Of a stretch of 22,967 nucleotides of DNA, positions 3,375 through 21,509 are shown piece after piece. The translations under genes and the position numbers were made by a program. The notes under the pieces are model-generated. The model did no database searches and had not been told where the DNA came from. It saw only the letters and a list, made by a program, of their open reading frames with translations. Within the stretch, counting starts at the first letter, position 1. Each line of letters begins with the position of its first letter. Origin of the DNA: a virus (Duplodnaviria; Heunggongvirae; Uroviricota; Caudoviricetes); IMG/VR virus record IMGVR_UViG_2687453563_000005; one strand, given 5' to 3'.

Positions 3375-6300
3375 TCAATGTTCGCTTCCTGTTAACTGCC
3401 CGACAAGTGCAACCAGTTCGCTTACCTGATTTTCCAGAGTGGTGATCCGGGTGCCTGCTGTTGCCAGATTTTGACGTAGCGTTGTGTTTTCCTCTTCCAG
3501 CGCGGTAACGCGATCATCTGTTTCACGGGCGACCTGAACAAGTAAGCCCGTCACGGCGGCGTAGTCAACATTCAGATAACGCGTTTCTTCACGTAATTCA
3601 TTGCCGTCAACCGTTGGTCCCTGCAACTCTTTACCGTAATGAGTGAATGAGCCTACCGCTTCCGGTATTGCCTCCATTGCTTCCTGTGCAATAACACCAG
3701 CGTAAGGCAGTCCGTTTTCCTTAAGTGTGTAGGTGTACCCGTTCATTTTACGGATAGCTTCGGTTGCGTCACTGATAATCTGAATATTGTCTTTCAGCTC
3801 GCGGTCTGATAACTGATTCAGTGTTGTACAGTTAATAGCACCGTTTACATCAAACAGCTGACCTGACGATGTTTTTTGAGCATAAAACAGATACGCGGCA
3901 GTCGTTCCAACCTCAAAAACGTTTTGTCGATCACCTGAACCCCACACCTTGACAGCAAATGGTAGTTCTGTATTACCTAAGTTCTGTAAAACAAAACGAT
4001 TGCCAGTCCCTGTTTGTTTTGTAAGGGTTAAATCAACAGTTGAGTTAACCTCATCCTTGTTGATAGTGAGCGCCTGCGCTGTAGCCCCGTTAACAGCACC
4101 TGTTTTGAGTTGAACCGCGCCGTCATTACCATTTAGCAGTATCTCAGCTCCGCTAAAGAAATTTTTTAGCGATAGCATCTTACTTACGCCGACTGATGAA
4201 CCCAACGCCCACGCGAGAGAATTACCGGTGCTATCAAACCCACGTACAAAGCAATCCATTTTGCTATAGTCTGACGTGCTTCCAAGGACATCAATCCGCC
4301 CTCCGCCAGATTTTATCGGGTTAGATGTGGTTAATGACCTGACAGCAATATCGGTAGATGAATTGAGATCGTCTACTGTTAGTAATTTCTTCCATTCCTG
4401 CGTCGTTCCATTTTCAATTGTTCTTCCCCAAAAACCGGAATTGCGGCCTCCGAACTGCACAGCATAATTTTTACTAAATTGAACATGAATGCCGCCAAGA
4501 ACCATAGAGCCTGCCGGGCCGTTTGTACTGCCTGCAATTGATCTAAATTTGTCGACGTTATCAGTATGCTGAGCGTTCCAGTCATGACCTGTTAATGTTG
4601 CAATTCCTGAGTTAGCTGTAATTAACCCAGACGCTTTAAGATTCTGCACATCAATTCTGTCGTTTGCGAAATTATATGCAATTGCGTTACTAACGCTTCC
4701 GGCATCATCATAATCGCGTTTCTGAATAAACCAGTCGCCAGCATTAGCAATGAGAGTATAAGTAGGCGTGTTAGCCGGGCGATCTGTTTCATTAAATCTT
4801 ATTGCTGGGTTAGCGCTCCTTATTTGTAAAGGTTTTTCAACCGTTGATTTCAGTATCGCACTATCTACAATTAAATTACCTTCTGAATTAAGGTTTAGAT
4901 ATTTTGAAGCACCAGTTGAACCATCGTATGTAAACCTTATTGTTAATTGACCTGGCTCATTTGATAAAGTTTCAACATACATATCAGCACCAAGACGCAC
5001 AGTGCTGTCAGTTGCTAACAGTCTTGTATGGAGAATTCCACTAGATGTGTATGTATTGGTCGAATCACTATATCTATCAAGAAATAGACTGTTAAGTTGA
5101 GGGCTGTTGTTCCTACCTAAGCCAAGATTCGTTCTGGCACCATCAACAGTTGCCGCATTAGTGCCTCCTTGTCCAATAGGTAATGGAACCCATGACGATC
5201 CGTTATGGCAACCCCACAATCCAGATGTTGACACCTGAAGTCGTGGCGCTGATGGTGAGTAATTCGAATAAACGTAAGTAGTCGATTCGCCTTCTTCAAT
5301 TCTTTCTGTTAATACTATTTTTTTCCATACACTCCAACCTTGTGTGCTGGTATATATCCTTCTATAAAGAATTGATGAATTGTTATATACAAAATAGCTC
5401 TGGATACAACCATCACTACCATTAGCACCAGTTCTTTGCACTAACAATGCACCAGCAAGCTGTATCGGGTAATTTAGTTCTGGCTTTGCGTTGGCAGACA
5501 TTGGTTGGTAATAAAAACCGGCTGTAGTACCTTTTATATCGTTTAAGTTCGTATTCGCATCAAGGCCAGTTTTTGCTTCAAACATGACTTCAAGTTTAGA
5601 GCGCGCTGTACTTGCATCATTCGCCCCTGTGCCACCTTGCGCAACTGCGAGCGGTTGCCATCTACCAGCTTTAGGGTTAAATGCGCCCCACTGACCGTCA
5701 GCATCAACCTGTAAGTAACAGCCGTCCGCCTGAACGTCAGTAGATAAAATGATGGTTCTTGTGTCGCTTGAACGCTGAAATCGGATAACCTCATCTTTTC
5801 TTGCGTGGCGTGTCCATTGCGGGCCTATTGTCGGATTCCAGCGATAAGTATAAAGCGAGCGCGTAGCCCATCCCTGAAATACACCTGTATACGCTGGTGT
5901 TCCATCTACCTGACTAATAAACCCCGTAAGACTGCTTTCACCGGATGCAATCGATGGAAATCCTTTTGCATTACTCATAATGCGCATAAATCCGATATAC
6001 CCTGATGGGTTGCCGGAAATATCAGGACAATCACGCGGGGCTGAGCCAAGACCGATATTATCGCCAACAATTAATTGCGCCTGGTTGCGATAATTAAGTG
6101 CGTCCGCCGCAGATTTCGCCGCGTTTGTTTCACTGGATTTAGCATTAGTTTCGCTGGCTTTAGCGTTTGTTTCGCTGCTCTTTGCTGCTGCCTCGCTATT
6201 TTTCGCGTTGGTTTCTGATTTTTTGGCTGCTGTCGCGGAGTTTGCCGATGCAGTTTGTGAGTCTGCTGCCGCCTGTGCGCTGTTACCCGCAATATAAAGG

Positions 6301-8685: not shown

Positions 8686-10017
8686 ATGTTAGATACACTA
8701 TCTTTCACTGAACGTGACGAGTTCCAACGAAGAAACATCGCTGAAAATATCATCAAGTTGCTAAAACCAGAGGCAGACATTTCACCACTGGTAATAGACG
8801 GCGCATGGGGAACAGGGAAAACAGAATTTAGTATCAAACTGAAAAATCTCATTATTGAGCAAGAAACTGAATCTAAAGTTGTTTATATTGATGCCTTTAA
8901 AGGGGATCATGCAGAATCTCCATTACTTCTCATAACCTCTGCAATTGCCAGCATTTTGCCTGAGGAAGAAAAACAACACTTCATTAAGAGATCTCTTCCT
9001 GCAATTCGCTTTGGTTTAAAAACGGTACTAAAAGCTGGTGCAGGTTGGTTTTTACGACAGGAGGCTAGTGAAGTTGCCGAAGAATTCCAAGATGCGATGA
9101 AGAAAGCAAGCAATGCAGCAATAGATGGGACTATTGAAAATTTGCTTGAAGACCATATGGACTCAGAGAAAAACATAAATTCACTTAAATCCTGCATCGA
9201 AAGCATATCAAAAAATCAAAAAATCGTAATTATAATTGATGAATTAGACCGATGTAAGCCGAGTTTTTCAACAAATGTCATTGAAACAATAAAACACATT
9301 TTTGACATCAATAATGTCTTTTTTATTTTAGTTACAAACACAGAACAATTAAAAGCATCTATAAATCATATTTATGGTTATAGCATTAACTCACAAAAGT
9401 ATCTTGACAAGTTTATAAAATATACCATCACGCTTCCAGATACATGTTTGATAAATGGTCACAACGTATGTAAAGCCTCTGTTATATATTGGGATTACCT
9501 TGTAGAAAAAACAAGGTTATTGAATAAAATCAATAGATTATCAGGTTACTTTATCCGTGATTTAATTCAACGAACCAACTTATCATTACGTGAAACACAA
9601 ACATTTTCACGCAATCTTAACATTTTCCAACTGTTAAACGACGATGAGAACAAAAGCAGTGATCCTTTAATAAATATGATCTTTGTCGTAGCTGCCTTCA
9701 TACATTGCTTTGGTAACAAGGAAAAACTAAAACAAGAAATTACCGCTGAATCTATATCTTATTTAGCAGACCTGCTTAACATAAAAGAAATACCTTATTC
9801 TTATGAGAGAAGATCGCAAATCCCTGAAATATCGATTGTATTCTTCGGAATAATTAAAGACAGTATTACTCTTAATGAGCGATTTGCCCCTAAAAGTGAT
9901 GAAGAACTTAAAAAATTCACAAATGTTTATACTGATTATGAACACATAAATTTTTGGAGTACTACACCCAGAGAGTTATTGATAAAATATATTAATCAAA
10001 TGTCATTCATCCAGTAA
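8686..10017 (+). CDS. KAP-family P-loop NTPase (443 aa), AT-rich, apparently soluble
   Basis: Walker A GAWGTGKT near residue 40; Walker B-like VIIIDELDRC near residue 185; composition far more AT-rich than flanking phage genes; opposite strand to the Q operon. Confidence 0.8.
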   Translation: MLDTLSFTERDEFQRRNIAENIIKLLKPEADISPLVIDGAWGTGKTEFSIKLKNLIIEQETESKVVYIDAFKGDHAESPLLLITSAIASILPEEEKQHFIKRSLPAIRFGLKTVLKAGAGWFLRQEASEVAEEFQDAMKKASNAAIDGTIENLLEDHMDSEKNINSLKSCIESISKNQKIVIIIDELDRCKPSFSTNVIETIKHIFDINNVFFILVTNTEQLKASINHIYGYSINSQKYLDKFIKYTITLPDTCLINGHNVCKASVIYWDYLVEKTRLLNKINRLSGYFIRDLIQRTNLSLRETQTFSRNLNIFQLLNDDENKSSDPLINMIFVVAAFIHCFGNKEKLKQEITAESISYLADLLNIKEIPYSYERRSQIPEISIVFFGIIKDSITLNERFAPKSDEELKKFTNVYTDYEHINFWSTTPRELLIKYINQMSFIQ

Positions 10018-10047
10018 ATAATACGCCCCATGCAGGGGCGTATTATT
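10016..10047. terminator. Bidirectional rho-independent terminator shared by KAP gene and Q (overlaps Q stop codon)
   Basis: aaataatacgcccc-atgca-ggggcgtattatt: 13-bp perfect inverted repeat with 5-nt loop, A/T-rich on both sides. Confidence 0.6.
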
Positions 10048-10414
10048 AAACGTCCAAATCTAATGTTAGATCTAGCATGGAAAGGCAGCCATCAATAAAT
10101 CCTTCGGCTAGCTGTATTTCTATACGTATCAATTTCTCATCTTTTTTACGAGCCTTGGCGAGCTTTCTTTTAGAGATACCGTATAGGTAATGGGCAACAA
10201 GAAGCGAATGTTCGTCCGGCCTTTTTTGCTTTAGATGAGCAAGACAACCTTCAATAATTAAGGCATCACTATCCGAACAAGCCAAGCGTTTCTTGCTTGT
10301 ATAGGGAAGAAGTCCCTTAAACCCAGCGGCTATAGGTGAATAATCAACGCCTGAACTATCACTCGCCGCCCATGCCCCCCAACGCTCCAGAACCATCTGA
10401 ATATCACGCATCAA
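10046..10414 (-). CDS. Late-gene antitermination protein Q (phage 82/21-type Q family, 122 aa)
   Basis: MMRDIQMVLERWGAWAA...SPIAAGFKGLLP... resembles QuuD-type antiterminators as recalled; last gene of the cro-to-Q operon. Confidence 0.75.
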   Translation of the reverse strand: MMRDIQMVLERWGAWAASDSSGVDYSPIAAGFKGLLPYTSKKRLACSDSDALIIEGCLAHLKQKRPDEHSLLVAHYLYGISKRKLAKARKKDEKLIRIEIQLAEGFIDGCLSMLDLTLDLDV

Positions 10415-10428
10415 CTTTCTCCACCAAA

Positions 10429-11424
10429 TCAGGCTAGCACACCAATTGCCAACACACGGTCGATAAAACGAAATATCAGCTCCAGCTGGGAGCCATACTT
10501 CTCTTCAAATGCCACGGTATCCGCATGCAGCTCGTCGTGATGCTTTCTGCACAAAGGCAACACAAAGAGGTCATGCGCTTTTGTACTCATTCCCCCCTGA
10601 CCGTGGCCTATCAGGTGGTGGGGATCATCAGCAGGCTTTCCACAACATGCACACGGCTGTGTCTTAACCCAGCGCGTGTACTTTTCATTAACCCAGCGGC
10701 GACGTTTGGGGCGTAACATAAAAGACTCCGGCGACTCCGGTTCCACTTTCAGCGCCAGCACCTTTTTCGCTTTATCCTGCATGATGCTGGTGGCTGGAAC
10801 CGAAGGCACAAGGTCACTTTCCCGGGTGACAGACGGCACAACAGGCTTCGGTAATCTCAGTGCCTTACGGGCTGCGCTTTCCGGTAAGGCATCCGCCAGA
10901 TCATTACGAACCAGCCACCAGCACAGTTCCGGCATTGTCACAACGTGACTATCATCAAAACCGAGATCCCGACGCACAACAGACAACACCCAGCGGGCAC
11001 AGTTATCCGTTGCCATTGATTCCAGCCGTTCCGTGAACTGATCGCGCAGTTGGTTATCGCAGTGCCAGCACAGACGGATTGCGCCAGGCGCGTGTCGCAT
11101 TGTGGTCATGTTCTCGCTGTGCCAGTTGGAATGAGGCCACTGGCAGCCTTTTTCACGAAGTAACCAGCTTTCAAGACATTCCACGCCACCAGCACGACGG
11201 ATCACTGCCTCATTGCGGAACACGGCCCGAACGGCAGGATCATCCGCCAGCGGTTGTGATGCCGCCGGAACGGCACCACTGGCGAAAGATGAATAACGTT
11301 CCGGCTCAGGCTCCAGCAGTACACGCCCCTGCATAAACAGGGGCATCAACTCTGAACCTGGCCTGAACAATACGATCCCCATACGCGGGGCAATTTCAGG
11401 GGTCAGTAGTGCTCTCACGGTCAC
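10429..11424 (-). CDS. Phage protein with C-terminal HNH/zinc-finger-like motif (DUF968/NinG-like), 331 aa; GTG start as drawn, true start uncertain
   Basis: C-terminal CACCGKPADDPHHLIGHGQGGMSTKAHDLFVLPLCRKHHDELH has Cys/His spacing typical of HNH-type modules; nin-region position. Confidence 0.55.
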   Translation of the reverse strand: MTVRALLTPEIAPRMGIVLFRPGSELMPLFMQGRVLLEPEPERYSSFASGAVPAASQPLADDPAVRAVFRNEAVIRRAGGVECLESWLLREKGCQWPHSNWHSENMTTMRHAPGAIRLCWHCDNQLRDQFTERLESMATDNCARWVLSVVRRDLGFDDSHVVTMPELCWWLVRNDLADALPESAARKALRLPKPVVPSVTRESDLVPSVPATSIMQDKAKKVLALKVEPESPESFMLRPKRRRWVNEKYTRWVKTQPCACCGKPADDPHHLIGHGQGGMSTKAHDLFVLPLCRKHHDELHADTVAFEEKYGSQLELIFRFIDRVLAIGVLA

Positions 11425-11425
11425 C

Positions 11426-12235
11426 TCAATGAACGGTATCGAGCAGCTTTAACAGCTCAGGGAATCGGGATTCGAAGAAATGCGGCTGCGTCTCGCGCGG
11501 ATTTGCAGGACTGGTGATGTTCTTGCCGAACATGCAGCCTTTCGCCGTCAGCGACCAGAATTTTTTGATGTTGTTAATCGCTGTACGGCTGTATCGTTCG
11601 CGCTGTTCGACGATCCCCAGCTTCGCCATCTGGTGATATGCCTGATTAGCCGTAAGGCGGATACCATACTGTTTCAGCAGTGCACTCAGCGACAGTGTCG
11701 GGCGACTTGAGCCATCAGGCGCGTCAGCAGGAGCATCAATGGCATAGCGCGGTGCCAGATTCGGTAAGCCAACAGCCTCCTGGAGTTTCTGACAGGCCCC
11801 AAGCACTGAAGAGTTAGACAGGTTTAACTCCCTGCGCATAAAGTCCAGCAGAATCACGCCAGCCTGCATCTTGTCAGCAGCCTGCCCGGATAATTTTTCC
11901 GGTGCGCTGGTTACCATATCGAAAGTACGGATCACCTTCAGATGGAATGACGGGCTGATCCACATTGCATAGGCATACACCAGTTCTTTGCAGACATACG
12001 TCCCCTGGTTATTTCCGCCATTAATGACGCTAACTGGTTGATTTTGTTCCAGAGGCGGAATTCCACCCTCGGTGAAAAGTTGTTCAATCAATTCACAGGT
12101 TTGCTTATTGGAGAGCCAGTATTTCGGGCGGTTTTTTTGTTCTCCCCCGGCTGCCCTGTGCAGATCGTTCAGGCTGTAACGCCCATAAGCATCACGACGA
12201 ACTTCAATACCATCAATGACCATCAGATTATTCAT
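11426..12235 (-). CDS. KilA-N domain protein (antirepressor-like), ~269 aa
   Basis: MNNLMVIDGIEVRRDAYGRYSLNDLHRAAGG...PKYWLSNKQTCELIEQL fits KilA-N; GAGGAG Shine-Dalgarno 9 nt upstream of the ATG at 12235 (the ORF-track start at 12268 overlaps rusA). Confidence 0.7.
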   Translation of the reverse strand: MNNLMVIDGIEVRRDAYGRYSLNDLHRAAGGEQKNRPKYWLSNKQTCELIEQLFTEGGIPPLEQNQPVSVINGGNNQGTYVCKELVYAYAMWISPSFHLKVIRTFDMVTSAPEKLSGQAADKMQAGVILLDFMRRELNLSNSSVLGACQKLQEAVGLPNLAPRYAIDAPADAPDGSSRPTLSLSALLKQYGIRLTANQAYHQMAKLGIVEQRERYSRTAINNIKKFWSLTAKGCMFGKNITSPANPRETQPHFFESRFPELLKLLDTVH

Positions 12236-12254
12236 ACTTCGTTTCTCCTCTTGA

Positions 12255-12644
12255 TCAGGCGGCTGCACCCGCCGTTTTCTCGTACTTACTGATAGTGATC
12301 TCGACCTTCCCTTCCGGGATAACCGGTCCCCACTCCACCAGCATTCTTTTCACCTGGCTGTCGTCTTCCCACACACCCGCGTGGGTCAGGGCGTCAAACA
12401 GCGCCTTGTTATAGTTGTCCAGATCGCGGATCCGGTTATCCGGAGGAAACAACACGATCTCCACTGAAGCAGGTGCCGACGTTGGTTTCGGCAGACGACG
12501 TAACTGCTCAACTATTGCTGTGCACGCCGCACTTTGGAATTTTCGCCCCGCCGCGCTTATCAGGCTCTTACCAGCAAATGCCCCTTTGTTGGGGTGTCGC
12601 CAGTAGGTGTTCACGCTGGGTGGAAAAGGCAGAATCAGCTTCAT
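12255..12644 (-). CDS. rusA: RusA-family Holliday junction resolvase (129 aa)
   Basis: LPFPPSVNTYWRH, RDLDNYNKALFDALTHAGVWEDDSQV match RusA signature; ATGA start/stop overlap with upstream gene. Confidence 0.85.
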   Translation of the reverse strand: MKLILPFPPSVNTYWRHPNKGAFAGKSLISAAGRKFQSAACTAIVEQLRRLPKPTSAPASVEIVLFPPDNRIRDLDNYNKALFDALTHAGVWEDDSQVKRMLVEWGPVIPEGKVEITISKYEKTAGAAA

Positions 12645-12967
12645 ACTTTCAGCCCCCTCTCATGTAACCAGTGGGCTGCACGCAGCCTTGCGTTTTCCTC
12701 ACCGGCAAGCAGTGAGCGGATAATCCCGACCGCCTCGCTGTCGTCGTCCTTCACCGCGGTATGAAGCGTGATCCCCCGGGCCACACCACGCTTTATCGTG
12801 ATGACGCCTTTTTTCTCCAGTGCGCGAAGATGCTCCACCGCTGCATTCACCGAACGGTATCCCAGCATGGTTGCCACCTCCTGATTGGTTGGCGGGAAGC
12901 CGCGTTCTTTCTGATAAGAAATCAGCATATCCAGCACCTGCTGCTGGCATTGAGTTAACGTCGTCAT
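12641..12967 (-). CDS. LexA N-terminal DNA-binding-domain homologue lacking the S24 peptidase domain (108 aa)
   Basis: MTTLTQCQQQVLDMLISYQKERGFPPTNQEVATMLGYRSVNAAVEHLRALEKKGVITIKRGVARGITL aligns along the LexA winged-helix domain; no Ser/Lys protease region follows. Confidence 0.7.
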   Translation of the reverse strand: MTTLTQCQQQVLDMLISYQKERGFPPTNQEVATMLGYRSVNAAVEHLRALEKKGVITIKRGVARGITLHTAVKDDDSEAVGIIRSLLAGEENARLRAAHWLHERGLKV

Positions 12968-13617
12968 GCCGCCATCTCCCTGACCAGTTTTTCTGCCTGC
13001 TGGCGAATCTGCGCCAGAAAGGCCTCACCACATGCCTCAAGTTCATCGCGCCCGATGTAGCTGATTGCCGGTCCCTTCCAGGTCTTGTCGAAAACAGCAA
13101 TAGCACCAGCGAAGAAAGCGCCTGTCGGCACCTGCTTCTCATCCTTCGGGATAAACCAGGCAGGCAGTTCAAAACCAATACGCCCGCGAATAAAAGCAAT
13201 ATGATCTACATCTTCCGGCCACCACACTTCGCTGGTGGCAGCTTTGATCAGGAAAACATAGCGCCCGCCTTTATCACGCATGGCACTGGCATGCTTCATG
13301 ATGTAACGCATGCCGGTGATGTATTGCCCCTCATGCTGACTGGCGCGGCTGTATGGGGGATTACCAAAGGCAGCACCTTTAAGCTCCGCAAGGCGTTCTG
13401 ACCAGTCATGCGCCAGCGCGTTGTCTTCCGCCGTGTAATACGCAGCACATTTGGCGTTATCACCGTCAGTGAACAGATCCAGAACAAACGGGCCAAACAG
13501 GGTGTTAATTCCCCAGAAAATGTTGTCCGGCGTGCGCCACTGATCGCCCACTTCCTTCAGTTCATGGGCTGGTTTGTTCCGCAGTTCCACCAGCGCCTGG
13601 CAATATTTATTACTCAT
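12964..13617 (-). CDS. Phage orphan DNA N6-adenine methyltransferase (Dam-like), ~217 aa
   Basis: FGNPPYS motif IV and overall phage Dam-family resemblance; start ATG at 13615..13617 overlaps upstream stop; no adjacent restriction gene. Confidence 0.8.
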   Translation of the reverse strand: MSNKYCQALVELRNKPAHELKEVGDQWRTPDNIFWGINTLFGPFVLDLFTDGDNAKCAAYYTAEDNALAHDWSERLAELKGAAFGNPPYSRASQHEGQYITGMRYIMKHASAMRDKGGRYVFLIKAATSEVWWPEDVDHIAFIRGRIGFELPAWFIPKDEKQVPTGAFFAGAIAVFDKTWKGPAISYIGRDELEACGEAFLAQIRQQAEKLVREMAA

Positions 13618-13907
13618 TAAGCCCCCACGTAATTCCCTGAGAGATACCACTCTTCACCTGATGCAGCCCGCTTACCCTGGCGACGCGCCTTACGCGTTAA
13701 CCAGCCTTCTGCTTCCAGCCGTGCGATAGCCGTTCTGACGGTACTCATCCCCGCGCCAATCTGACGGGCAATGGTTTCAATTGATGGCCAGCACACACCT
13801 TCGTCATTACTGAAATCAGCCAGGCGGGCCATAATTGCCACGCTGGATAACTTCATGCCTGATGCAGCGCAACCATCCCATACATAGCCGGTTAATTTAG
13901 TGCTCAT
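13617..13907 (-). CDS. Small winged-helix DNA-binding protein (96 aa), possibly replication- or regulation-related
   Basis: SIETIARQIGAGMSTVRTAIARLEAEGWL HTH-like segment; function not assignable from sequence alone. Confidence 0.5.
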   Translation of the reverse strand: MSTKLTGYVWDGCAASGMKLSSVAIMARLADFSNDEGVCWPSIETIARQIGAGMSTVRTAIARLEAEGWLTRKARRQGKRAASGEEWYLSGNYVGA

Positions 13908-13916
13908 GACCGACCT

Positions 13917-14255
13917 CTATTTCCCTGAATTTACGACGAAACTGTTCGAGCGGGCTGAAGCACTCATGCTCATAGCCTTCGCGGAGGTAGATAACCCGTT
14001 GTGTTTCCGGTTCCCAACGAATGACTCTGACGGGCACTCCGTAGTGATCTTTGAACCAGCGGTTAACTTGTCGCAAAGGACTGTCTCCTTCTGCCGGTTG
14101 AAATCACCCACAGCCCACTCTGCAAAGCTGTGGGTTACAATTTCCCTGTCACCTGGTACATTTACTGCATAGCAATACTCCACCTTCGCTTTTCCACCCG
14201 GTACAGGAAGCGCAATCAGTTGCGAGCGACGGTAGTGTGTTGTTAAACTGTTCAT
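13917..14255 (-). CDS. Hypothetical protein (112 aa), translationally coupled to upstream gene
   Basis: ATG at 14253..14255 overlaps the upstream TGA (ATGA); no motif recognised; contains an 8-bp inverted repeat cccacagc/gctgtggg at about 14110..14137. Confidence 0.4.
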
Positions 14256-14866
14256 GCGTTAGTTTCTCCACAACCAGAAGCAATCGACGCCACGACGCCC
14301 GGAGCTGCACACTCGCGGGCGTCATTACTTTCTGAAATGCAAAAAATTTTGTAGACAAGTGCTGCATGCTCCTGCAGCTTCGAAATTGAGAGATACAGCT
14401 CGTCGTTAATTGCTGTCTTCTCATGCGGTTCCACTACACCGTCTTCGATTGCTGAACGAATCTGTTTTGAATAACTGCCGATCTGTTCAATGACTTCCAG
14501 CAGACGCTGGTTAATATCGGCGTTGTCCACATCCTCGACGTCAGGAAGAGACACAAAGACGCCATTTGCAGACTGCGCCACAGCGTCAGCAATGAAGTGA
14601 GTTCCACCAGCACGTTGCAAAATCATTGCCCATCCCAGCGGGAAAATCTGATCGCCATCGGCACGAAGGCGGTTAAATAATGCGTTCTCTGTTACATCCA
14701 GCCAGTCAGCTGCTTCAGCGTAACCCCCCGGCAACGCTGCGATAGTTTTTCTGACAGCTTTCACGTACCACTCAGGCTGTTTTTCTACTTTCCAGTGATG
14801 CTTACCCACGGTTAGCCTCATCGTTCTGTGGTTTCTGTTAATCGATTTATCCATTAGATTTTTCAT
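14252..14866 (-). CDS. CII-like/YdaT-like phage regulatory protein in the post-cro position (~205 aa; start uncertain, ATG at 14866 or 14854)
   Basis: Sits directly downstream of cro as in lambdoid prophages; family assignment from position and general resemblance only; ORF-track start at 14923 is a GTG inside cro. Confidence 0.5.
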
Positions 14867-15047
14867 AAAGCTCAGGTTTAAATGGCAACCGTCCGCAAGT
14901 TCTATATGCAGCTTCTGCTGCACGTCCTTTTGGAATTAACTGGCCCGGACGGTTTCGCCACTGATAAACGGCTTCAGTTGTTATGCCGAAAAAAGCAGCA
15001 ACTTTCTCAATACTGCCGAAGTAGCTTTCGATATCGTCAGTTGTCAT
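14847..15047 (-). CDS. Cro-like repressor (66 aa, YdaS/Cro-type HTH)
   Basis: Small HTH protein (FGITTEAVYQWRNR) transcribed divergently from the cI-like gene. Confidence 0.7.
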   Translation of the reverse strand: MTTDDIESYFGSIEKVAAFFGITTEAVYQWRNRPGQLIPKGRAAEAAYRTCGRLPFKPELYEKSNG

Positions 15048-15144
15048 ACGCCCTCCAAACTAAGTTTTATTAGATGCTAATTACAAATCTATCTTTGGTC
15101 AATAAAAACTAAGATTACTTAGCAATTAAAGAAATGGTGCTCCT
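15048..15144. promoter_or_regulatory. cI/cro divergent promoter-operator region
   Basis: 97-bp AT-rich spacer between divergent repressor genes with repeated CTAAG/CTTAG motifs (aactaagtttta, attagatgctaat, aactaagattacttag). Confidence 0.4.
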
Positions 15145-15771
15145 ATGGAAACGGTTGGTCAGCGTATAAAAGCTCTGAGAAGAGTTACCAGAACGTCCCA
15201 GAAAGAATTGGGTAAATTTTGTGGAGTAAGCGACGTTGCTGTGGGGTACTGGGAGAAAGACATCAATACCCCTGGTGGGGAGGCACTTTCGAAATTAGCG
15301 AAGTTCTTCAATACGTCAATAGATTACATTCTTTATGGTGCTGAGTTTGAAGGCAAACTCGTCACAAACATGCGCAGAGTTCCTGTAATATCGTGGGTTC
15401 AGGCTGGGCAGTTTACTGAGTGCAGGGCAGCAGAAGTGTTTAGTGAAGTGGACAAGTGGGTAGATACATCATTAAAGGTTGGTGATAACTCATTTGCATT
15501 AGAGGTTAAAGGTGACTCCATGACTAACCCTAATGGCCTCCCAACAATACCAGAAGGCGCAACAGTGATTGTAGATCCAGATGCAGAACCTCGTCATGGA
15601 AAAATAGTCATCGCTCGACTTGATGGAACAAACGAAGCTACAGTAAAAAAATTAGTCATCGATGGCCCTCAAAAGTTTTTAGTACCATTAAATCCTCGGT
15701 ATCCCAACATCCCTATCAATGGTAATTGCCTTATCATTGGTGTAGTCAAAGGAGTTCAATACGAACTCTAA
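15145..15771 (+). CDS. CI-type prophage repressor: XRE HTH plus LexA-like S24 peptidase domain (208 aa)
   Basis: N-terminal HTH (IKALRRVTRTSQKELGKFCGVSDVAVGYWE) and C-terminal autocleavage domain with GDSM serine motif and downstream Lys (VKKLV). Confidence 0.9.
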   Translation: METVGQRIKALRRVTRTSQKELGKFCGVSDVAVGYWEKDINTPGGEALSKLAKFFNTSIDYILYGAEFEGKLVTNMRRVPVISWVQAGQFTECRAAEVFSEVDKWVDTSLKVGDNSFALEVKGDSMTNPNGLPTIPEGATVIVDPDAEPRHGKIVIARLDGTNEATVKKLVIDGPQKFLVPLNPRYPNIPINGNCLIIGVVKGVQYEL

Positions 15772-15934
15772 GGCCTCTCTTCTCTAACTAAGGCACCGAA
15801 CTAAGAAAAGTTTGGTGTTTTCTCTTGCCATGACAACTAAGTTAAGTTAGATTTTATATCAAAGATAACGAACAGGCAGGACGCCCACGAAGTAGCCGCC
15901 TGGGGCATATGAAGTCCAGGATGATTCGTTAGCA

Positions 15935-15960
15935 ACAAAAAAGCGCCCTACAGGACGCTT
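15935..15960 (-). terminator. Rho-independent terminator for the 16002..16523 gene
   Basis: Minus-strand RNA forms aagcgtcc/gggcgctt stem (one mismatch) with tgta loop followed by UUUUUUG. Confidence 0.45.
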
Positions 15961-16001
15961 AGCTCTTTAACAATCTGGGTATCATCCAACCAATGCAAGA
16001 T

Positions 16002-16523
16002 TTAAGGAATCCAAGGCGAATTCAGATCTCGCCCCAACTCACGTAATGATCTTGGTCGTTCGTACATCGGATTTTTTTCCATAAGAAATTTATTTTCACA
16101 GTGAAGGCAACGGCTTGTAAGAAAATGAGAAGTTTTACCTACTGGAAGCGGATGAAGTATCGATTTTATATTTTTGGAATAACAAAGTGGGCACAGATGC
16201 ACAGTTATTTCTTTTCCACTCACAATTTCATTTTTAGAGTAAACAAAAGCACCAGAGTCAAGCTGATCAAGGACATATCCTTCTACCTTGGCACAAAAAT
16301 CTTCAAACTCTGCAATTTTTGCTTTGAGATGCATCACCTCTTCATCACGAAGGCGGATCGCATCGCCAAGAGAGAAGCATTCTGCCTGAAGCGTGATTAG
16401 TTTGTTCTGGAGTTCAATGGTTGCAGCTTTAACTTCTGCATCCGTTTTCGCGTCATTAATAACCTTAGCAAGACCGGCAGTCTCCTTTATAGCGGCCATA
16501 GCCGCAGACAGTTCAGCTATCAC
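16002..16523 (-). CDS. Hypothetical protein (~165-173 aa): N-terminal coiled coil, C-terminal CxxC...CxxC zinc-ribbon-like motif; AT-rich moron beside cI
   Basis: Heptad-like N-terminus; CPLCYS...CLHCEN cysteine pairs; own terminator; composition differs from flanks; GTG at 16523 or ATG at 16499 as start. Confidence 0.5.
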   Translation of the reverse strand: MIAELSAAMAAIKETAGLAKVINDAKTDAEVKAATIELQNKLITLQAECFSLGDAIRLRDEEVMHLKAKIAEFEDFCAKVEGYVLDQLDSGAFVYSKNEIVSGKEITVHLCPLCYSKNIKSILHPLPVGKTSHFLTSRCLHCENKFLMEKNPMYERPRSLRELGRDLNSPWIP

Positions 16524-16855
16524 GTTGAATACTCAGCTAGTTGTTGGGGATATCCAGATTAACCAAATCCTTGTTGTTGGGGAATAACTAGGTCCACCTC
16601 GCCTGATGTGGCTAAAAGCAGGCACATAACAGCTAAGTATTTTCAACCAGAGAGAATCCTTAGCGTTGTGGTGAATGCGGCTCAGCGCACGCGGGTTAAG
16701 GTTGAGGCTGACAGTCGACCTTCTGTGGATACCCACCCGCCTGGTGTGCAACCTTCGCCAGGCACCGGGAGGCACCCGGCACCACAACTTTATGCTGTGT
16801 GTAGTCCTCGCGGTACCAGTTTGTACACTTGCTTCCGGCTGGTACCGCTCTTTTT

Positions 16856-16944
16856 ACAAAACAGAGAAGAACATCACCGGACGACGGGCTCATAACCCAA
16901 TCCATCCGGGCGGCTGCCACCGCAGGTGTTCTTCTCTGTTTTGT
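16856..16944. repeat. 18-bp perfect inverted repeat (acaaaacagagaagaaca / tgttcttctctgttttgt) enclosing ~53 bp; a second 9-bp inverted repeat (cggtaccag/ctggtaccg) lies just upstream at 16811..16848
   Basis: Read directly from the sequence; located about 50 nt upstream of the YfdP-like start. Confidence 0.6.
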
Positions 16945-16992
16945 GGAGAAACCAACCGACCTTGCAGGGTCGATATGATTAGGAGCAGAAAA

Positions 16993-17355
16993 ATGGCTAG
17001 CGAACGCAGTACTGATGTGCAGGCATTTATTGGGGAGCTGGACGGCGGCGTATTTGAAACCAAAATCGGCGCAGTTCTCAGTGAAGTCGCTTCCGGTGTG
17101 ATGAACACGAAAACCAAAGGTAAGGTCTCACTCAACCTGGAAATCGAACCATTTGATGAGAACCGTGTGAAAATCAAACACAAACTCTCATATGTTCGCC
17201 CGACTAACCGCGGGAAAATTTCCGAAGAAGACACCACCGAAACGCCGATGTATGTCAATCGCGGTGGTCGCCTGACTATTCTGCAGGAAGACCAGGGACA
17301 ATTACTGACTCTTGCCGGTGAACCTGACGGAAAACTCCGCGCAGCAGGTCATTAA
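16993..17355 (+). CDS. YfdP-like prophage protein (120 aa)
   Basis: AGGAG Shine-Dalgarno 7 nt upstream of ATG at 16993; the longer 16675 ORF-track start is rejected; family call from memory of the CPS-53 yfdP/yfdQ gene neighbourhood. Confidence 0.5.
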   Translation: MASERSTDVQAFIGELDGGVFETKIGAVLSEVASGVMNTKTKGKVSLNLEIEPFDENRVKIKHKLSYVRPTNRGKISEEDTTETPMYVNRGGRLTILQEDQGQLLTLAGEPDGKLRAAGH

Positions 17356-17420
17356 TATCGTTCTTAATTAACCGATTATTTATCTCATCACTGAATATCT
17401 TTATATAGTGAGGACTTATT

Positions 17421-18245
17421 ATGTCTCAGAACTTAGACGCAACCGCAATTAATCAAATCCATGCCCTTATTTCTGCTCAGGGTGTTAATGAAATTATCAG
17501 TAAGATTGGTGCCGATGCTGTGGCATTGCCTGAGAATTTCCGCATTCATGATCTGGAAAAATTTAATTTAAATCGCTTCCGTTTCCGTGGTGCGCTTTCC
17601 ACTGCCAGCATCGATGACTTTACCCGTTACTCTAAAGATCTTGCAGATGAAGGCACCCGCTGCTTTATCGATGCCGATAATATGCGAGCCGTCAGTGTGC
17701 TTAACCTGGGTACTATTGATGAACCAGGTCACGCAGATAACACCGCCACACTCAAACTGAAAAAGACAGCACCGTTCTCTGCTCTGTTGTCTATTAACGG
17801 CGAGCGTAACTCCCAGAAGTCACTAGCAGAATGGATTGAAGACTGGGCAGACTATCTTGTGGGCTTTGATGCTAATGGTGACGCTATTCAGGCAACAAAA
17901 GCGGCTGCGGCTGTCCGTAAAATCACGATTGAAGCAAACCAGACCGCTGATTTTGAAGATAATGACTTCAGCGGCAAACGCTCCCTGATGGAGTCTGTCG
18001 AAGCGAAGACCAAAGATATTATGCCTGTGGCATTTGAATTTAAATGCGTTCCGTTTGAAGGCCTGAAAGAACGTCCGTTTAAATTACGCCTCAGCATTAT
18101 CACTGGCGATCGTCCTGTACTGGTTCTGCGCATTATTCAGCTGGAAGCAGTGCAGGAAGAAATGGCTAACGAATTTCGTGATCTGCTTGTTGAGAAATTC
18201 AAGGACAGCAAAGTAGAAACCTTTATTGGTACTTTCACCGCCTGA
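17421..18245 (+). CDS. YfdQ-like protein (DUF2303 family, 274 aa)
   Basis: Length and sequence character consistent with the CPS-53 YfdQ family as recalled; GAGGA Shine-Dalgarno upstream. Confidence 0.65.
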
Positions 18246-18257
18246 TTTCATTACTGC

Positions 18258-18279
18258 AAATGCCCCTGCGGGGGCATTT
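18258..18279 (+). terminator. Hairpin (aaatgcccc-tgcg-ggggcattt) after the yfdQ-like gene; possible partial terminator
   Basis: 9-bp perfect stem with 4-nt loop; only a short T-run follows. Confidence 0.35.
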
Positions 18280-18372
18280 ATGGAAACGTAATTGACTCAA
18301 TAATCGCCGGATGGTGAGGGCTTCCTTTTACCAGAATTCAGCGCGGTGCAGCGCATATACGTGGAGAACAAA

Positions 18373-18909
18373 ATGTCATTTATTAAAACTTTTTCCGGGA
18401 AGCATTTTTATTATGACAGGATAAATAAAGACGACATCGTTATTAACGATATCGCGGTTTCTCTTTCAAATATCTGTCGCTTTGCAGGGCATCTTTCACA
18501 TTTCTACAGCGTTGCCCAACATGCGGTGCTTTGCAGCCAACTGGTACCGCAGGAATTTGCTTTTGAAGCGTTAATGCATGATGCAACAGAAGCGTATTGC
18601 CAGGACATCCCGGCGCCACTGAAACGCCTTCTTCCTGACTATAAACGGATGGAAGAAAAAATAGATGCAGTAATCCGTGAGAAATACGAGTTGCCCCCGG
18701 TTATGAGCACGCCCGTGAAATATGCCGATCTCATCATGCTGGCAACCGAACGCCGTGATCTCGGGCTTGATGATGGCTCTTTATGGCCTGTACTGGAAGG
18801 TATCCCGGCAACAGAGATGTTCAAAGTTATTCCACTGGCACCGGGCCATGCCTACGGGATGTTTATGGAACGCTTCAACGAGTTATCGGAATTACGCAAA
18901 TGTGCATAA
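18373..18909 (+). CDS. HD-domain phosphohydrolase (YfbR/YfdR-like 5'-deoxynucleotidase family), ~178 aa
   Basis: H...HD...D pattern (FAGHLSHFYSVAQHAV...ALMHDATEAY...D); GGAG Shine-Dalgarno before ATG at 18373. Confidence 0.7.
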   Translation: MSFIKTFSGKHFYYDRINKDDIVINDIAVSLSNICRFAGHLSHFYSVAQHAVLCSQLVPQEFAFEALMHDATEAYCQDIPAPLKRLLPDYKRMEEKIDAVIREKYELPPVMSTPVKYADLIMLATERRDLGLDDGSLWPVLEGIPATEMFKVIPLAPGHAYGMFMERFNELSELRKCA

Positions 18910-19778
18910 CTCATGTAGTTAGTTTTTCTGGCGGGAGAACATCCGCATATCTTGTTCACCTGATGGAAGAACAAAGAAAGGCTGGCAATAACGTCTGCTA
19001 CATCTTTATGGATACCGGTTGCGAACATCCGCTGACATACCGCTTTATCCGGGAGGTTGTGAAGTTCTGGGACATACCACTAACTGTGTTACAGGTCGAT
19101 ATAAATCCTGAGCTTGGGCAGCCAAATGGTTATACAGAATGGGAGCCAAAGGATATTCAGACACGAATGCCGGTGCTTAAACCGTTTATGGACATGGTTA
19201 AAAAGTACGGCACGCCATACATCGGCGGCGCGCTCTGTACTGATAGGCTAAAACTCATCCCTTTCACAAAATACTGCGATAACCATTTCGGGCGAGGTAA
19301 TTACATCACATGGCTGGGTATTCGTGCAGACGAACCCCGTAGGCTGAAACCGAAATCGGGCGTCCGGTATCTTGCCGAGCTGTCAGATTTTGATAAGTCG
19401 GATGTTATCCGGTGGTGGCGAAAACAACCTTTTGATTTGCAAATCCCGGAGCATCTCGGGAACTGTGTTTTCTGCATCAAAAAGTCAACGCAAAAGCTGG
19501 GGCTTGCATGTAAAGACGAACCAGGTCTGATGCGAGTTTTTAATGAGCTGGTTACAGGCAAACACGTCAGGGATGGTCATCGCAGAACAGGTAAAGACAT
19601 TATGTACCGTGGTCACCTGACGCTTGACGGAATTGCCAGAATGTCTGCCAACAGCGACTACAGAAATTTGTATCAGGCGATGGTACAGGCCAGGCGATTC
19701 GATACCGGCTCGTGTTCAGAGTCATGTGAAATCTGGGGTGATCAATTGGAATTGGAATTCAAAGAGGTAGGGGTATGA
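18900..19778 (+). CDS. PAPS-reductase-like PP-loop ATP pyrophosphatase family protein, ~292 aa
   Basis: PP-loop motif VVSFSGGRTSAY near N-terminus; ATG at 18900 overlaps the HD gene stop (ATGTGCATAA), indicating translational coupling. Confidence 0.75.
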   Translation: MCITHVVSFSGGRTSAYLVHLMEEQRKAGNNVCYIFMDTGCEHPLTYRFIREVVKFWDIPLTVLQVDINPELGQPNGYTEWEPKDIQTRMPVLKPFMDMVKKYGTPYIGGALCTDRLKLIPFTKYCDNHFGRGNYITWLGIRADEPRRLKPKSGVRYLAELSDFDKSDVIRWWRKQPFDLQIPEHLGNCVFCIKKSTQKLGLACKDEPGLMRVFNELVTGKHVRDGHRRTGKDIMYRGHLTLDGIARMSANSDYRNLYQAMVQARRFDTGSCSESCEIWGDQLELEFKEVGV

Positions 19779-20119
19779 CAACCGAAATTAACTACCATGC
19801 ACTGCTTGAGCGCGCACGGAATAAAGTGCAGAGCATTGAGTTCGCCTTAACACAGAGTGCATTCGCTGAGATTCGCGCTGAGCTTGAAAATGATTTAGAA
19901 CTGGCACGGATTGCACTGGCATCTCTGGAAGTTGAGCCAGATGAACGCGCAGCCTATGAATTATTTATGGAAAAGCGTTTCGGTAAAACAGTCGATCGTC
20001 GGAGAGCAAAAAACGGCGATAACGAATACATGGCATGGGATATGACTCTCGGTTGGATCGTCTGGCAGCAACGAGCTGGTATCCATTTTTCAACAATGTC
20101 ACAGCAAGAGGTGAAATAA
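19775..20119 (+). CDS. Hypothetical phage protein (114 aa)
   Basis: ATGA overlap with the upstream gene and TAATG overlap with xis; no motif recognised. Confidence 0.5.
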   Translation: MTTEINYHALLERARNKVQSIEFALTQSAFAEIRAELENDLELARIALASLEVEPDERAAYELFMEKRFGKTVDRRRAKNGDNEYMAWDMTLGWIVWQQRAGIHFSTMSQQEVK

Positions 20120-20469
20120 TGGAGCCATACAGCCTCACACTCGATGAGGCCTGTCATTTTCTCAAGATATCCAGACCGACTGCCATTAACTGGATACGCA
20201 CAGGGCGTCTTCAGGCAACACGCAAAGATCCCACTAAGAATAAATCTCCTTACCTCACAACACGACAAGCCTGCATTGCGGCTCTTCAGTCTCCGCTGCA
20301 TACTGTCCAGGTGAGCGCGGGTGATGGCATAACAGAGGAAAGAAAATGTCACTCTTCCGCAGAGGTGAAATATGGTACGCCAGTTTCACATTGCCGAACG
20401 GTAAAAGATTTAAACAGTCTCTTGGAACAAAGGACAAAAGGCAGGCGACAGAACTCCATGACAAGCTAA
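20119..20469 (+). CDS. xis: Excisionase (AlpA/Xis-family HTH), ~116 aa
   Basis: [34 protein letters not shown]; resembles P22 Xis as recalled; 3' end overlaps int in another frame. Confidence 0.75.
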
Positions 20470-21509
20470 AGGCTGAAGCATGGCGGGTCAGCAAACTTGG
20501 TGAAATACCTGATATAACGTTCGAGGAAGCGTGTGTCAGGTGGCTTGAAGAGAAAGCACATAAAAAATCACTGGACGATGACAAAAGCCGGATCGGATTC
20601 TGGCTTCAACATTTCGCAGGAATGCAACTAAGAGACATTACTGAATCAAAAATTTATTCAGCAATGCAGAAAATGACGAACCGGCGTCATGAGGAAAACT
20701 GGAAACTCAGGGCAGAAGCATGCAGAAAAAAAGGGAAACCTGTTCCAGAATACACGCCAAAACCAGCGTCCGTTGCAACGAAGGCTACGCATCTTTCATT
20801 TATAAAGGCCCTACTAAGAGCCGCAGAGCGTGAATGGAAAATGCTGGATAAGGCACCAATTATTAAAGTGCCTCAACCAAAGAATAAACGGATCCGCTGG
20901 CTGGAGCCCCATGAAGCACAAAGGCTGATTGATGAATGTCCGGAGCCATTAAAGTCTGTTGTTGAATTTGCACTGGCAACAGGCTTAAGACGCTCGAACA
21001 TCATCAACCTTGAATGGCAACAAATAGATATGCAGCGCCGGGTGGCATGGATAAACCCAGAAGAGAGTAAATCAAACCGCGCAATCGGCGTTGCGCTGAA
21101 TGATACTGCATGTCGCGTTTTGAAAAAACAAATCGGGAATCATCACCGTTGGGTATTTGTGTACAAGGAAAGCTGTACCAAACCAGACGGAACGAAAGCG
21201 CCAACAGTAAGGAAGATGCGGTATGACGCAAACACAGCCTGGAAAGCGGCGCTGAGACGGGCTGGTATTGATGATTTCAGATTTCACGACTTGAGACACA
21301 CCTGGGCAAGTTGGCTGGTTCAAGCCGGAGTCCCGTTGTCAGTGTTACAGGAAATGGGAGGCTGGGAGTCTATCGAAATGGTTCGTCGATATGCTCACCT
21401 TGCACCTAATCACCTTACCGAACACGCACGGCAAATAGACTCGATCCTGAACCCATCGGTCCCAAATTTGTCCCAGTCAAAAAATAAGGAAGGTACTAAT
21501 GATGTGTAA
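20346..21509 (+). CDS. int: Tyrosine integrase, P22-Int-like (387 aa)
   Basis: N-terminus [48 protein letters not shown] and catalytic HDLRHTWAS...RRYAHL motifs; GAGGAA Shine-Dalgarno; next to thrW, the P22 attachment site. Confidence 0.9.

Follow-up and report, generated by a model that had tools for sequence, protein, structure and literature searches.

A probable Rip1-family defence gene with a conserved, repeat-bearing control module in the early-left leader of a defective Escherichia coli prophage

The window analysed here, a stretch of 22,967 nucleotides (nt) from a phage of the class Caudoviricetes (IMG/VR record IMGVR_UViG_2687453563_000005), carries near its cI repressor gene, on the opposite strand, an open reading frame (ORF) whose RefSeq entry, WP_000559913.1, is labelled 'hypothetical protein'. 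Our analysis indicates that this ORF is probably a Rip1-family gene, that is, a single-protein, prophage-encoded abortive-infection defence. The protein shares the sequence signature, the fold and the conserved cysteines of that family, and its gene forms a cassette with its own 5' control module and terminator and with no co-oriented partner gene; two direct repeats in the control module are conserved and co-vary between loci. An original prediction, made from the letters of this DNA, had proposed an exclusion or defence moron on the strand opposite cI with its own terminator; both the gene and the terminator are found there, and the homology to Rip1, an anti-phage protein of solved structure, supports the reading as a defence gene. 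The two features concerned are:

16002..16523, minus strand: rip1-like coding sequence, 173 amino acids (aa), GTG start, encoding an N-terminal helical hairpin and a C-terminal four-cysteine domain (from the ORF list)
15935..15960, minus strand: intrinsic terminator of the cassette, AAGCGTCC-TGTA-GGGCGCTT, with an 8-bp stem, a TGTA loop and TTTTTT (T6) (from a terminator scan)

The findings on Rip1 itself are taken from section 5 of a review (PMC13434031), which summarises Patel et al. (2026, Nature 651:1060). Rip1 was discovered in a prophage of Pseudomonas aeruginosa, where its gene separates those of the small and the large terminase, and its relatives are widespread in proteobacteria, chiefly in prophages. 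Alone, the protein is non-toxic. In the complex, an 11-mer ring of the small terminase is surrounded by twelve Rip1 monomers, of which the C-terminal half contacts the ring while the N-terminal amphipathic helices build a pore; such complexes perforate cells and cause dye to leak from liposomes, and escaper phages carry mutations in the portal (Pseudomonas phages) or in the small terminase (E. coli phages) (PMC13434031).

Sequence and Structural Evidence for a Rip1-Family Protein

Remote homology search and structure prediction both point to Rip1 as represented by PDB entry 9oox, a cryogenic electron microscopy structure of Rip1 from Escherichia phage HK446 together with the small terminase of phage T6. 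Chain L of this entry, 'ring interacting pore 1 (Rip1)', was the sole match in a sequence search of the PDB with phmmer (E=1.8e-9), aligning residues 5-151 of the window protein with residues 15-160 of 164, and a profile built from 36 homologues matched 9oox over its full length at E=3.7e-20. The AlphaFold2 model of the ORF (predicted local distance difference test score 91.9) has helices at residues 2-24 and 28-79, in keeping with the helical N-terminus noted originally, and a beta-rich region at 84-150. When this model was compared with the PDB using Foldseek, chains of 9oox alone fell below E=1e-3, with a probability of 1.00 (9oox_M, E=8.6e-7 and template modelling (TM) score 0.71; 9oox_L, TM score 0.52; target-normalised). 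The query-normalised TM scores are lower (0.39-0.55), which would fit a different orientation of the helices in the modelled free monomer than in the assembled state.

A scan of PHROGs gave the same relatives. The window protein matches phrog_1244 (E=2.7e-52), a group whose function is unannotated and which also matches HK446 gp37 (2.2e-53), gp30 of the Pseudomonas phage JBD30 (2.7e-61) and a protein of 689R2, with E values in the range 1e-40 to 1e-61; JBD30 gp30 and the window protein are further linked by tblastn (E=1e-12). Scans of the window protein against Pfam, NCBIfam and PADLOC returned only coiled-coil and zinc-ribbon matches at chance level, the PADLOC version used (v2.0.0, dated 2023) predating the description of Rip1. 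Since the 2494 cluster representatives recovered by hmmsearch match end to end and nearly all measure 145-180 aa, the family of the window ORF is, on this evidence, a large one with a single domain architecture. Conservation within it is uneven: mean pairwise identity is 69% over residues 1-56, 48% over residues 83-150 and 15% in the tail, and mosaic alleles occur in which the N-terminal halves are identical and the C-terminal halves divergent. The gradient and the mosaics would fit a sensor under diversifying pressure, a signature of an arms race.

The motif originally described as CPLC...CLHC is present as the pairs C111-P-L-C114 and C139-L-H-C142. All four cysteines are invariant across the 36 homologues and are found in the HK446, JBD30 and 689R2 proteins as well, which also have a handful of other invariant residues in common with the window protein; Cys49 is an additional invariant cysteine, specific to the family of the window ORF as sampled by the 36 homologues. 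From the conserved tetrad, the C-terminal domain is predicted to be a zinc ribbon.

Such a domain would also be expected of a nucleic-acid-binding regulator, for example of the pL operon or of the neighbouring STnc100 element (see below), the coiled coil then serving for dimerisation. Zinc ribbons of the CxxC...CxxC type are frequent among DNA- and RNA-binding proteins, the gene sits in a regulatory region, and weak matches were obtained to a zinc-ribbon regulator (NF047363, E=0.11) and to an RNA polymerase subunit (6rfl_S, E=0.65). However, these matches are at chance level, whereas Rip1 is matched in full length at E=3.7e-20 and is the sole significant fold match. The same gene stands between terminase genes in Pseudomonas phages and thus has no tie to the immunity region, and its slot swaps it for unrelated cargo, unlike the locus of a dedicated regulator. 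We therefore consider a regulator very unlikely and retain the assignment to the Rip1 family.

Two properties of the coding sequence deserve comment. For the homologue in PhiR49_1 a start giving 242 aa is annotated; this version was rejected for the window, where an in-frame TGA lies 5' of the GTG. It is further disfavoured by the alignment of the window with PhiR49_1, in which the DNA 5' of the GTG is ~99% identical and non-coding, while 3' of it the DNA is ~70% identical with divergence of the synonymous type, and conservation at the protein level begins. Because of the upstream TGA and this shift in the character of the alignment, the sequence places the real start at the GTG or at the nearby Met9; the GTG is preceded by a weak Shine-Dalgarno sequence (GAG). 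The gene had also been described as AT-rich, which stands in so far as its GC content (41.4%) is lower than that of the whole window (46.9%; cI, 43%), yet the dip is only modest.

A Conserved Control Module with Two Direct Repeats

Two exact copies of GTTGTTGGGGA had been noted upstream of the start, and both are confirmed, at 16540-16550 and 16573-16583. On the gene strand they belong to a control module of ~100 nt with the following parts:

16540..16550, minus strand: proximal direct repeat, TCCCCAACAAC, at about the predicted +1, forming the first part of a 5' untranslated region (UTR) of ~27 nt
16573..16583, minus strand: distal direct repeat, TCCCCAACAAC, overlapping the predicted -35 (TTCCCC, 16584..16579)
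16556..16561, minus strand: candidate -10, TAATCT, inferred, with TAAT at 16561..16558
16594..16623, minus strand: conserved upstream block, GCCTG-N-TTTT-N-CCAC-N-TCAGGC-N3-GTGG, present in SfV and HK446

The pair of repeats is not significant by itself, as ~25% of Markov-shuffled windows hold an exact 11-mer repeat within 60 nt; two other exact 11-mer pairs within that distance, at 6121/6163 (GCGTTTGTTTC) and 10664/10688 (TTAACCCAGCG), emerged from the chance control. We accept the repeats as real because they are conserved across genera and because both copies change together. In an unbiased sample of 19 loci from other genera, picked by protein similarity, 15 keep both repeats with at most two mismatches, and the mean identity of those other-genera loci is 77% over the 100 nt preceding the start codon and 65% in the coding sequence, the next 100 nt being unalignable (19%). 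Both copies are switched to CCCCTACAG in HK446 and 689R2, with the spacing kept at 33-34 nt: the rip1 module of HK446 has the same geometry, both repeats reading ACCCCTACAG and flanking TAAAAT, and 689R2 has the same ACCCCTACAG-type variant around TAATAT. Such joint change at a constant spacing suggests one factor recognising both copies.

Between the repeats, TAAT is invariant in all 32 distinct upstream sequences, and the -10-like hexamer has the variants TAAAAT (HK446), TAATAT (689R2) and TATAAT (locus L085). With TAATCT as the register, the -35 would begin with the distal repeat and transcription with the proximal one, near 16549-16551, placing the C-rich repeats at about -32 and +1 of the predicted promoter. 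A reading of the repeats as cI operators was rejected, the operators of cI being CTAAG-N4-CTTAG palindromes at 15058-15122 and 15799-15852 and the module being present in phages of other immunity. From these comparisons we take the repeats to be functional elements within a conserved module of promoter and 5' UTR. A role as regulatory sites, as originally proposed, would fit the conservation, the concerted change and the placement around TAAT.

The repeats could instead act otherwise than as DNA-binding sites, as a CA-rich, unstructured translational enhancer in the mRNA, as an Hfq/CsrA-type site (AAC-AAC-AAG, with ACAAGGAU between the copies) or as a homology arm for recombination. A structured, riboswitch-like 5' UTR was rejected, since RNAalifold on the 32 sequences shows no structure over the repeats, a result that is compatible with these other roles, as are the GTG start with its weak GAG Shine-Dalgarno sequence and the conservation among cassettes of different cargo, which extends precisely to the 3' boundary of the proximal repeat and no further. 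If TAAT is the -10, however, transcription starts 3' of the distal copy, which is then not part of the mRNA; the joint switch to CCCCTACAG in HK446 and 689R2 at 33-34 nt spacing speaks for one factor serving both copies, and a recombination arm alone would need no second copy. We regard these roles as possible but somewhat doubtful, and continue with the repeats as probable parts of a promoter module.

The upstream block at 16594-16623 crosses genera and persists even where there is no minus-strand cargo (SfV). Its versions fall into three linked haplotypes, GCCTGC/GCGAGG, GCCTGTC/GCTCGG and GCCTGG/GCGGC. RNAalifold on the 32 distinct sequences gives a 5-bp stem GCCUG/CAGGC far upstream, with one compensatory change, and L034 is the sole locus with compensatory changes in both small stems of the block. 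An interpretation of the changes in the block as RNA pairing was not upheld: they look like linked variants and not covariation, save for the one compensatory pair in L034.

A Cassette Slot with Interchangeable Cargo

The slot that holds the gene was aligned in five phages. Terminator and 5' module are near-identical in the window, PhiR49_1, 689R6 and SfIV, and the gene inside this frame is rip1-like in the window and PhiR49_1 and codes for an unrelated 144-aa phrog_5286 protein in 689R6 and SfIV; SfV has a plus-strand ORF in the slot, without the repeats. Scanning IMG/VR for the pattern of the two repeats yielded at least 120 loci. Their cargo is Rip1-like in 43 (23 distinct proteins) and a phrog_5286 protein in 52, and a third class, at ~17 loci, encodes first a small Pro-rich peptide and then a protein of 150-170 aa with two transmembrane segments. 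The terminator module of the cassette stands 3' of 47 of the 49 phrog_5286 cassettes in IMG/VR, and also in SfIV and 689R6. Across the types of cargo, the sequences are conserved precisely as far as the 3' end of the proximal repeat, and the ribosome-binding site beyond it is specific to the cargo.

The phrog_5286 protein (144 aa, SfIV_36), for which no match was found in Pfam, PADLOC or the PDB, is a candidate product of a defence gene as yet undescribed. It is encoded on the minus strand in L003 (2918-3352) and L005 (2831-3265) and at IMG/VR loci such as L082 and L092, and a distant version of 148 aa is found in L043. Cargo of the third class occurs at L097, L094, L118, L028, L034, L098, L106, L081 and L113, in all of them 3' of the repeat module. 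Its Pro-rich peptide has 26-43 aa and the consensus xDYEERHMPPFKRPEPPPKP, and is sometimes followed by a second such ORF; the larger protein (MTRDDxIFDxxYSYxLEKMYFT...) has two predicted transmembrane helices and weak matches to '2TM effector' in PADLOC (E=0.005).

The Cassette in the pL Leader of a Prophage Remnant

The surroundings of the cassette are made up of the following features:

15145..15771, plus strand: cI-type repressor of the LexA family (from the ORF list and RefSeq)
15825..15853, plus strand: pL-like promoter, TTGCCA-17-TAGATT (from a promoter scan)
15835-15852: OL operator, AACTAAGTTAAGTTAGAT, overlapping the pL-like -10 and matching the OR operators at 15058-15075 and 15108-15122
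15961..15975, plus strand (pL-sense): rrn-type boxA, AGCTCTTTAACAATC, with the exact 12-mer GCTCTTTAACAA, the one exact match in the window
16635..16857, plus strand: prophage small RNA (sRNA) element of the STnc100/PasD family (Rfam RF02076, E=6.3e-9; 49.1 bits, above the gathering score of 47)

The CTAAG-N4-CTTAG palindromes occur twice between cro and cI (15058-15122) and twice just past the cI stop (15797-15853), where one of the OL-side palindromes falls within the hairpin of the cI terminator. At the aligned position the heteroimmune phages PhiR49_1, SfV and SfIV have a near-consensus TTGACA-16-CATAAT. Because an operator overlaps the -10 and the heteroimmune relatives have a near-consensus promoter there, we identify the region 15825-15853, by its sequence, as pL/OL, from which the early-left operon (yfdP ... 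xis, int) would be read rightwards. The cassette is thus part of the pL leader, in convergent orientation to pL. This qualifies the original placement of the gene next to cI, which is correct in that only 231 nt separate it from the cI stop, but overlooks that the cI terminator and pL/OL intervene; the position likened to that of rexAB does not hold, as the gene is found past pL/OL, within the early-left leader, and converges with pL.

The slot is bounded by a conserved 75-nt leader (15860-15935) and by the STnc100-family element. Read in the sense of pL, boxA comes immediately after the terminator hairpin, the same order of hairpin and boxA as in rrn leaders (the rrnB boxA used for comparison is from PMC2176067); boxA is also matched in PhiR49_1, and SfV has none at the aligned place. 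It is probably a nutL-like element, and its location suggests that transcription from pL becomes termination-resistant just ahead of the cassette. No N-like gene follows pL, so that the early-left operon may use antitermination by host Nus factors.

A 7-codon ORF in the conserved pL leader (15906-15929, plus strand; ATGAAGTCCAGGATGATTCGTTAG, with GGGG upstream) is probably no gene, its ATG being lost in SfIV; SfV keeps a stop at that position. On the far side of the cassette, the STnc100 element, which is related to PasD sRNAs (2026 preprint, 10.64898/2026.05.13.724894), terminates in a hairpin (16810-16848) with a run of T. It is followed by an inverted repeat with 25-nt arms (16856-16944), a further hairpin (16955-16974) and the start codon of yfdP; the GC-rich leader of ~400 nt from 16635 to 16990 is ~99% identical among SfV-like phages.

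Positions 15780-17000 recur with 100% identity in the chromosomes of numerous E. coli isolates, e.g., NZ_CP033401, and in chromosomes of this type they belong to a defective SfV/CPS-53-like prophage at tRNA-Thr (thrW), beside proA. In the window this remnant extends over ~9700-21500, bordered by IS1 and a GIY-YIG gene at one end and by int and tRNA-Thr at the other, with flanking pseudogenes. It retains a tail-fibre gene, ymfL, cro, cI, the rip1-like ORF, yfdPQR, a phosphoadenosine phosphosulfate (PAPS)-reductase-like gene, xis and int, and the replication genes and most tail genes are gone. The window allele or a close one occupies the slot in ~371 of 5426 complete E. coli genomes (~7%). The retention of cI, cro and the Rip1-like gene, with the tail-fibre gene alone left for morphogenesis, would fit a domestication of the defence cassette.

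The same decay, with replication, head, terminase and most tail genes stripped away and IS1 and pseudogenes at the flanks, would equally be expected if the gene were an inactive passenger, a Rip1 homologue whose expression or function has been lost. Yet the ORF is intact, being 100% identical in at least 16 of the complete genomes listed and belonging to a 90% cluster of 134 member sequences; it retains the four cysteines and all family-invariant residues; its 5' module and terminator are intact and identical to those of inducible phages such as PhiR49_1; and cI is intact and would hold pL silent. An inactive passenger is in our judgement unlikely.

Several points nonetheless weigh against an active Rip1-type defence gene and should be kept in mind. 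Our account of the Rip1 mechanism is second-hand, drawn from the review (PMC13434031) and the title of PDB 9oox. Identity is just 25% to HK446 Rip1 and 29-30% to JBD30 gp30, so that the range of triggers could differ, or activity be lost. The amphipathicity of the N-terminus is modest and not striking: the hydrophobic moment in an 18-residue sliding window, a measure that is not diagnostic, peaks at ~0.34 (0.34 at residues 7-30), near the values of HK446 (0.42) and JBD30 (0.35) in the same region over the first 30 residues. The proposed promoter matches the consensus at 6 of 12 positions and drew no call in the promoter scan, and with head and terminase genes absent from the remnant, expression is uncertain.

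Comparison with Known Systems

HK446 Rip1 (gp37) is likewise a member of phrog_1244, of the same length class and with the two-domain fold and four cysteines, and its gene likewise lies antisense inside a lambdoid pL operon, downstream of a GCCTG...GGTGG block and direct repeats 33-34 nt apart around a -10-like hexamer. The two differ in the repeat motif (ACCCCTACAG in HK446, TCCCCAACAAC in the window) and in position, HK446 rip1 following gene N whereas the window cassette precedes the first pL gene, between the boxA-like site and STnc100; the window protein also has a longer C-terminal tail (residues 151-173) and the extra Cys49. The type represented by JBD30 gp30 and D3112 orf25 in Mu-like prophages of P. 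aeruginosa, in which the defence was discovered, belongs to the same PHROG and is again a single gene on the strand opposite the lytic genes. JBD30 gp30 has on one side the gene for a 'DNA binding protein' resembling a small terminase and on the other that for the large terminase, in agreement with the description of Rip1 in the review. Its locus is not near the immunity region and has no CCCCAACAAC module upstream. Common to the window, HK446 and JBD30 is a rip1 gene placed antisense in a lytic operon.

RexAB of lambda is a prophage-encoded, lysogen-expressed abortive-infection system near cI that kills via the membrane; it comprises two proteins, one of them polytopic in the membrane, whose genes stand between cI and OL and share the pRM transcript with cI. 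The window gene is unlike it, coding for a single soluble-looking protein on the opposite strand, beyond pL/OL, and without homology to it, no Rex homologue of the ORF being found in the Pfam or PADLOC scans. In position the gene is, by analogy, closer to the sieB type and to HK446 rip1. SieB of P22 and lambda is reportedly a gene for superinfection exclusion and abortive infection that is embedded in the pL operon, is expressed in the lysogen from a promoter of its own and is under antisense control. The analogy is one of position alone, as SieB is a membrane protein without sequence relationship to the window ORF, for which scans of Pfam, PHROGs and NCBIfam gave no SieB homologue.

A likeness to Rip1 is also seen in Avs1-3 and TerI, other sensors of phage packaging proteins, which are triggered by conserved late phage morphogenesis proteins (PMC13601566). 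The Avs proteins recognise the large terminase and are large STAND NTPases whose effector domains are separate, whereas Rip1 unites sensor and effector in one protein of ~170 aa.

Proposed Mode of Action and Implications

For the window we infer an anti-phage activity with its trigger and pore, a use of the promoter, a role for the repeats and an interference by pL that could work together as follows. In the lysogen, cI would repress pL, and the weak promoter of the cassette would yield an mRNA with a short leader, so that Rip1-like monomers would build up harmlessly. Late in a superinfection, rings of the small terminase or portal would nucleate a Rip1 collar via the C-terminal zinc-ribbon domains, and the N-terminal helices would then assemble a membrane pore, leading to collapse of the cell before progeny mature. 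On induction of an intact relative, antiterminated transcription from pL would traverse the cassette head-on, with possible silencing of rip1; as a speculation, this silencing would be a plausible protection of the phage's own rings. In the window prophage, without terminase and portal, the gene would serve the host alone.

On a more tentative level, the repeats, TAAT and the GCCTG...GGTGG block could together be a portable module with which temperate phages of enterobacteria drive interchangeable defence cargo, always inserted antisense in the pL leader past boxA, in which a repeat-binding factor and head-on transcription from pL might make up a switch that is ON in lysogeny and OFF in lytic growth and so spares the terminase and portal rings of the phage from its Rip1. 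The gene in the window is an uncharacterised new member of the Rip1 family, whose mechanism was published in 2026, and as such is no surprise. The module with its repeats and the cassette slot, which accommodates three or more classes of cargo in the pL leader, seem to have no description in the literature searched, a search that left the primary Rip1 paper outside its scope.

The assignment gives a likely function to the 'hypothetical protein' WP_000559913.1 and its relatives, and related genes are present in many prophages of Enterobacterales. It shows that enterobacterial genes of the Rip1 type travel as cassettes that share a highly conserved control region, in a slot that also accepts other cargo likely to target membranes, so that searching 3' of the repeat module may offer a handle on new single-gene defences. 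The diversified C-terminal domains would provide natural variants for mapping the specificity of the trigger, and the system would allow a test of how a prophage avoids setting off its own ring sensor.

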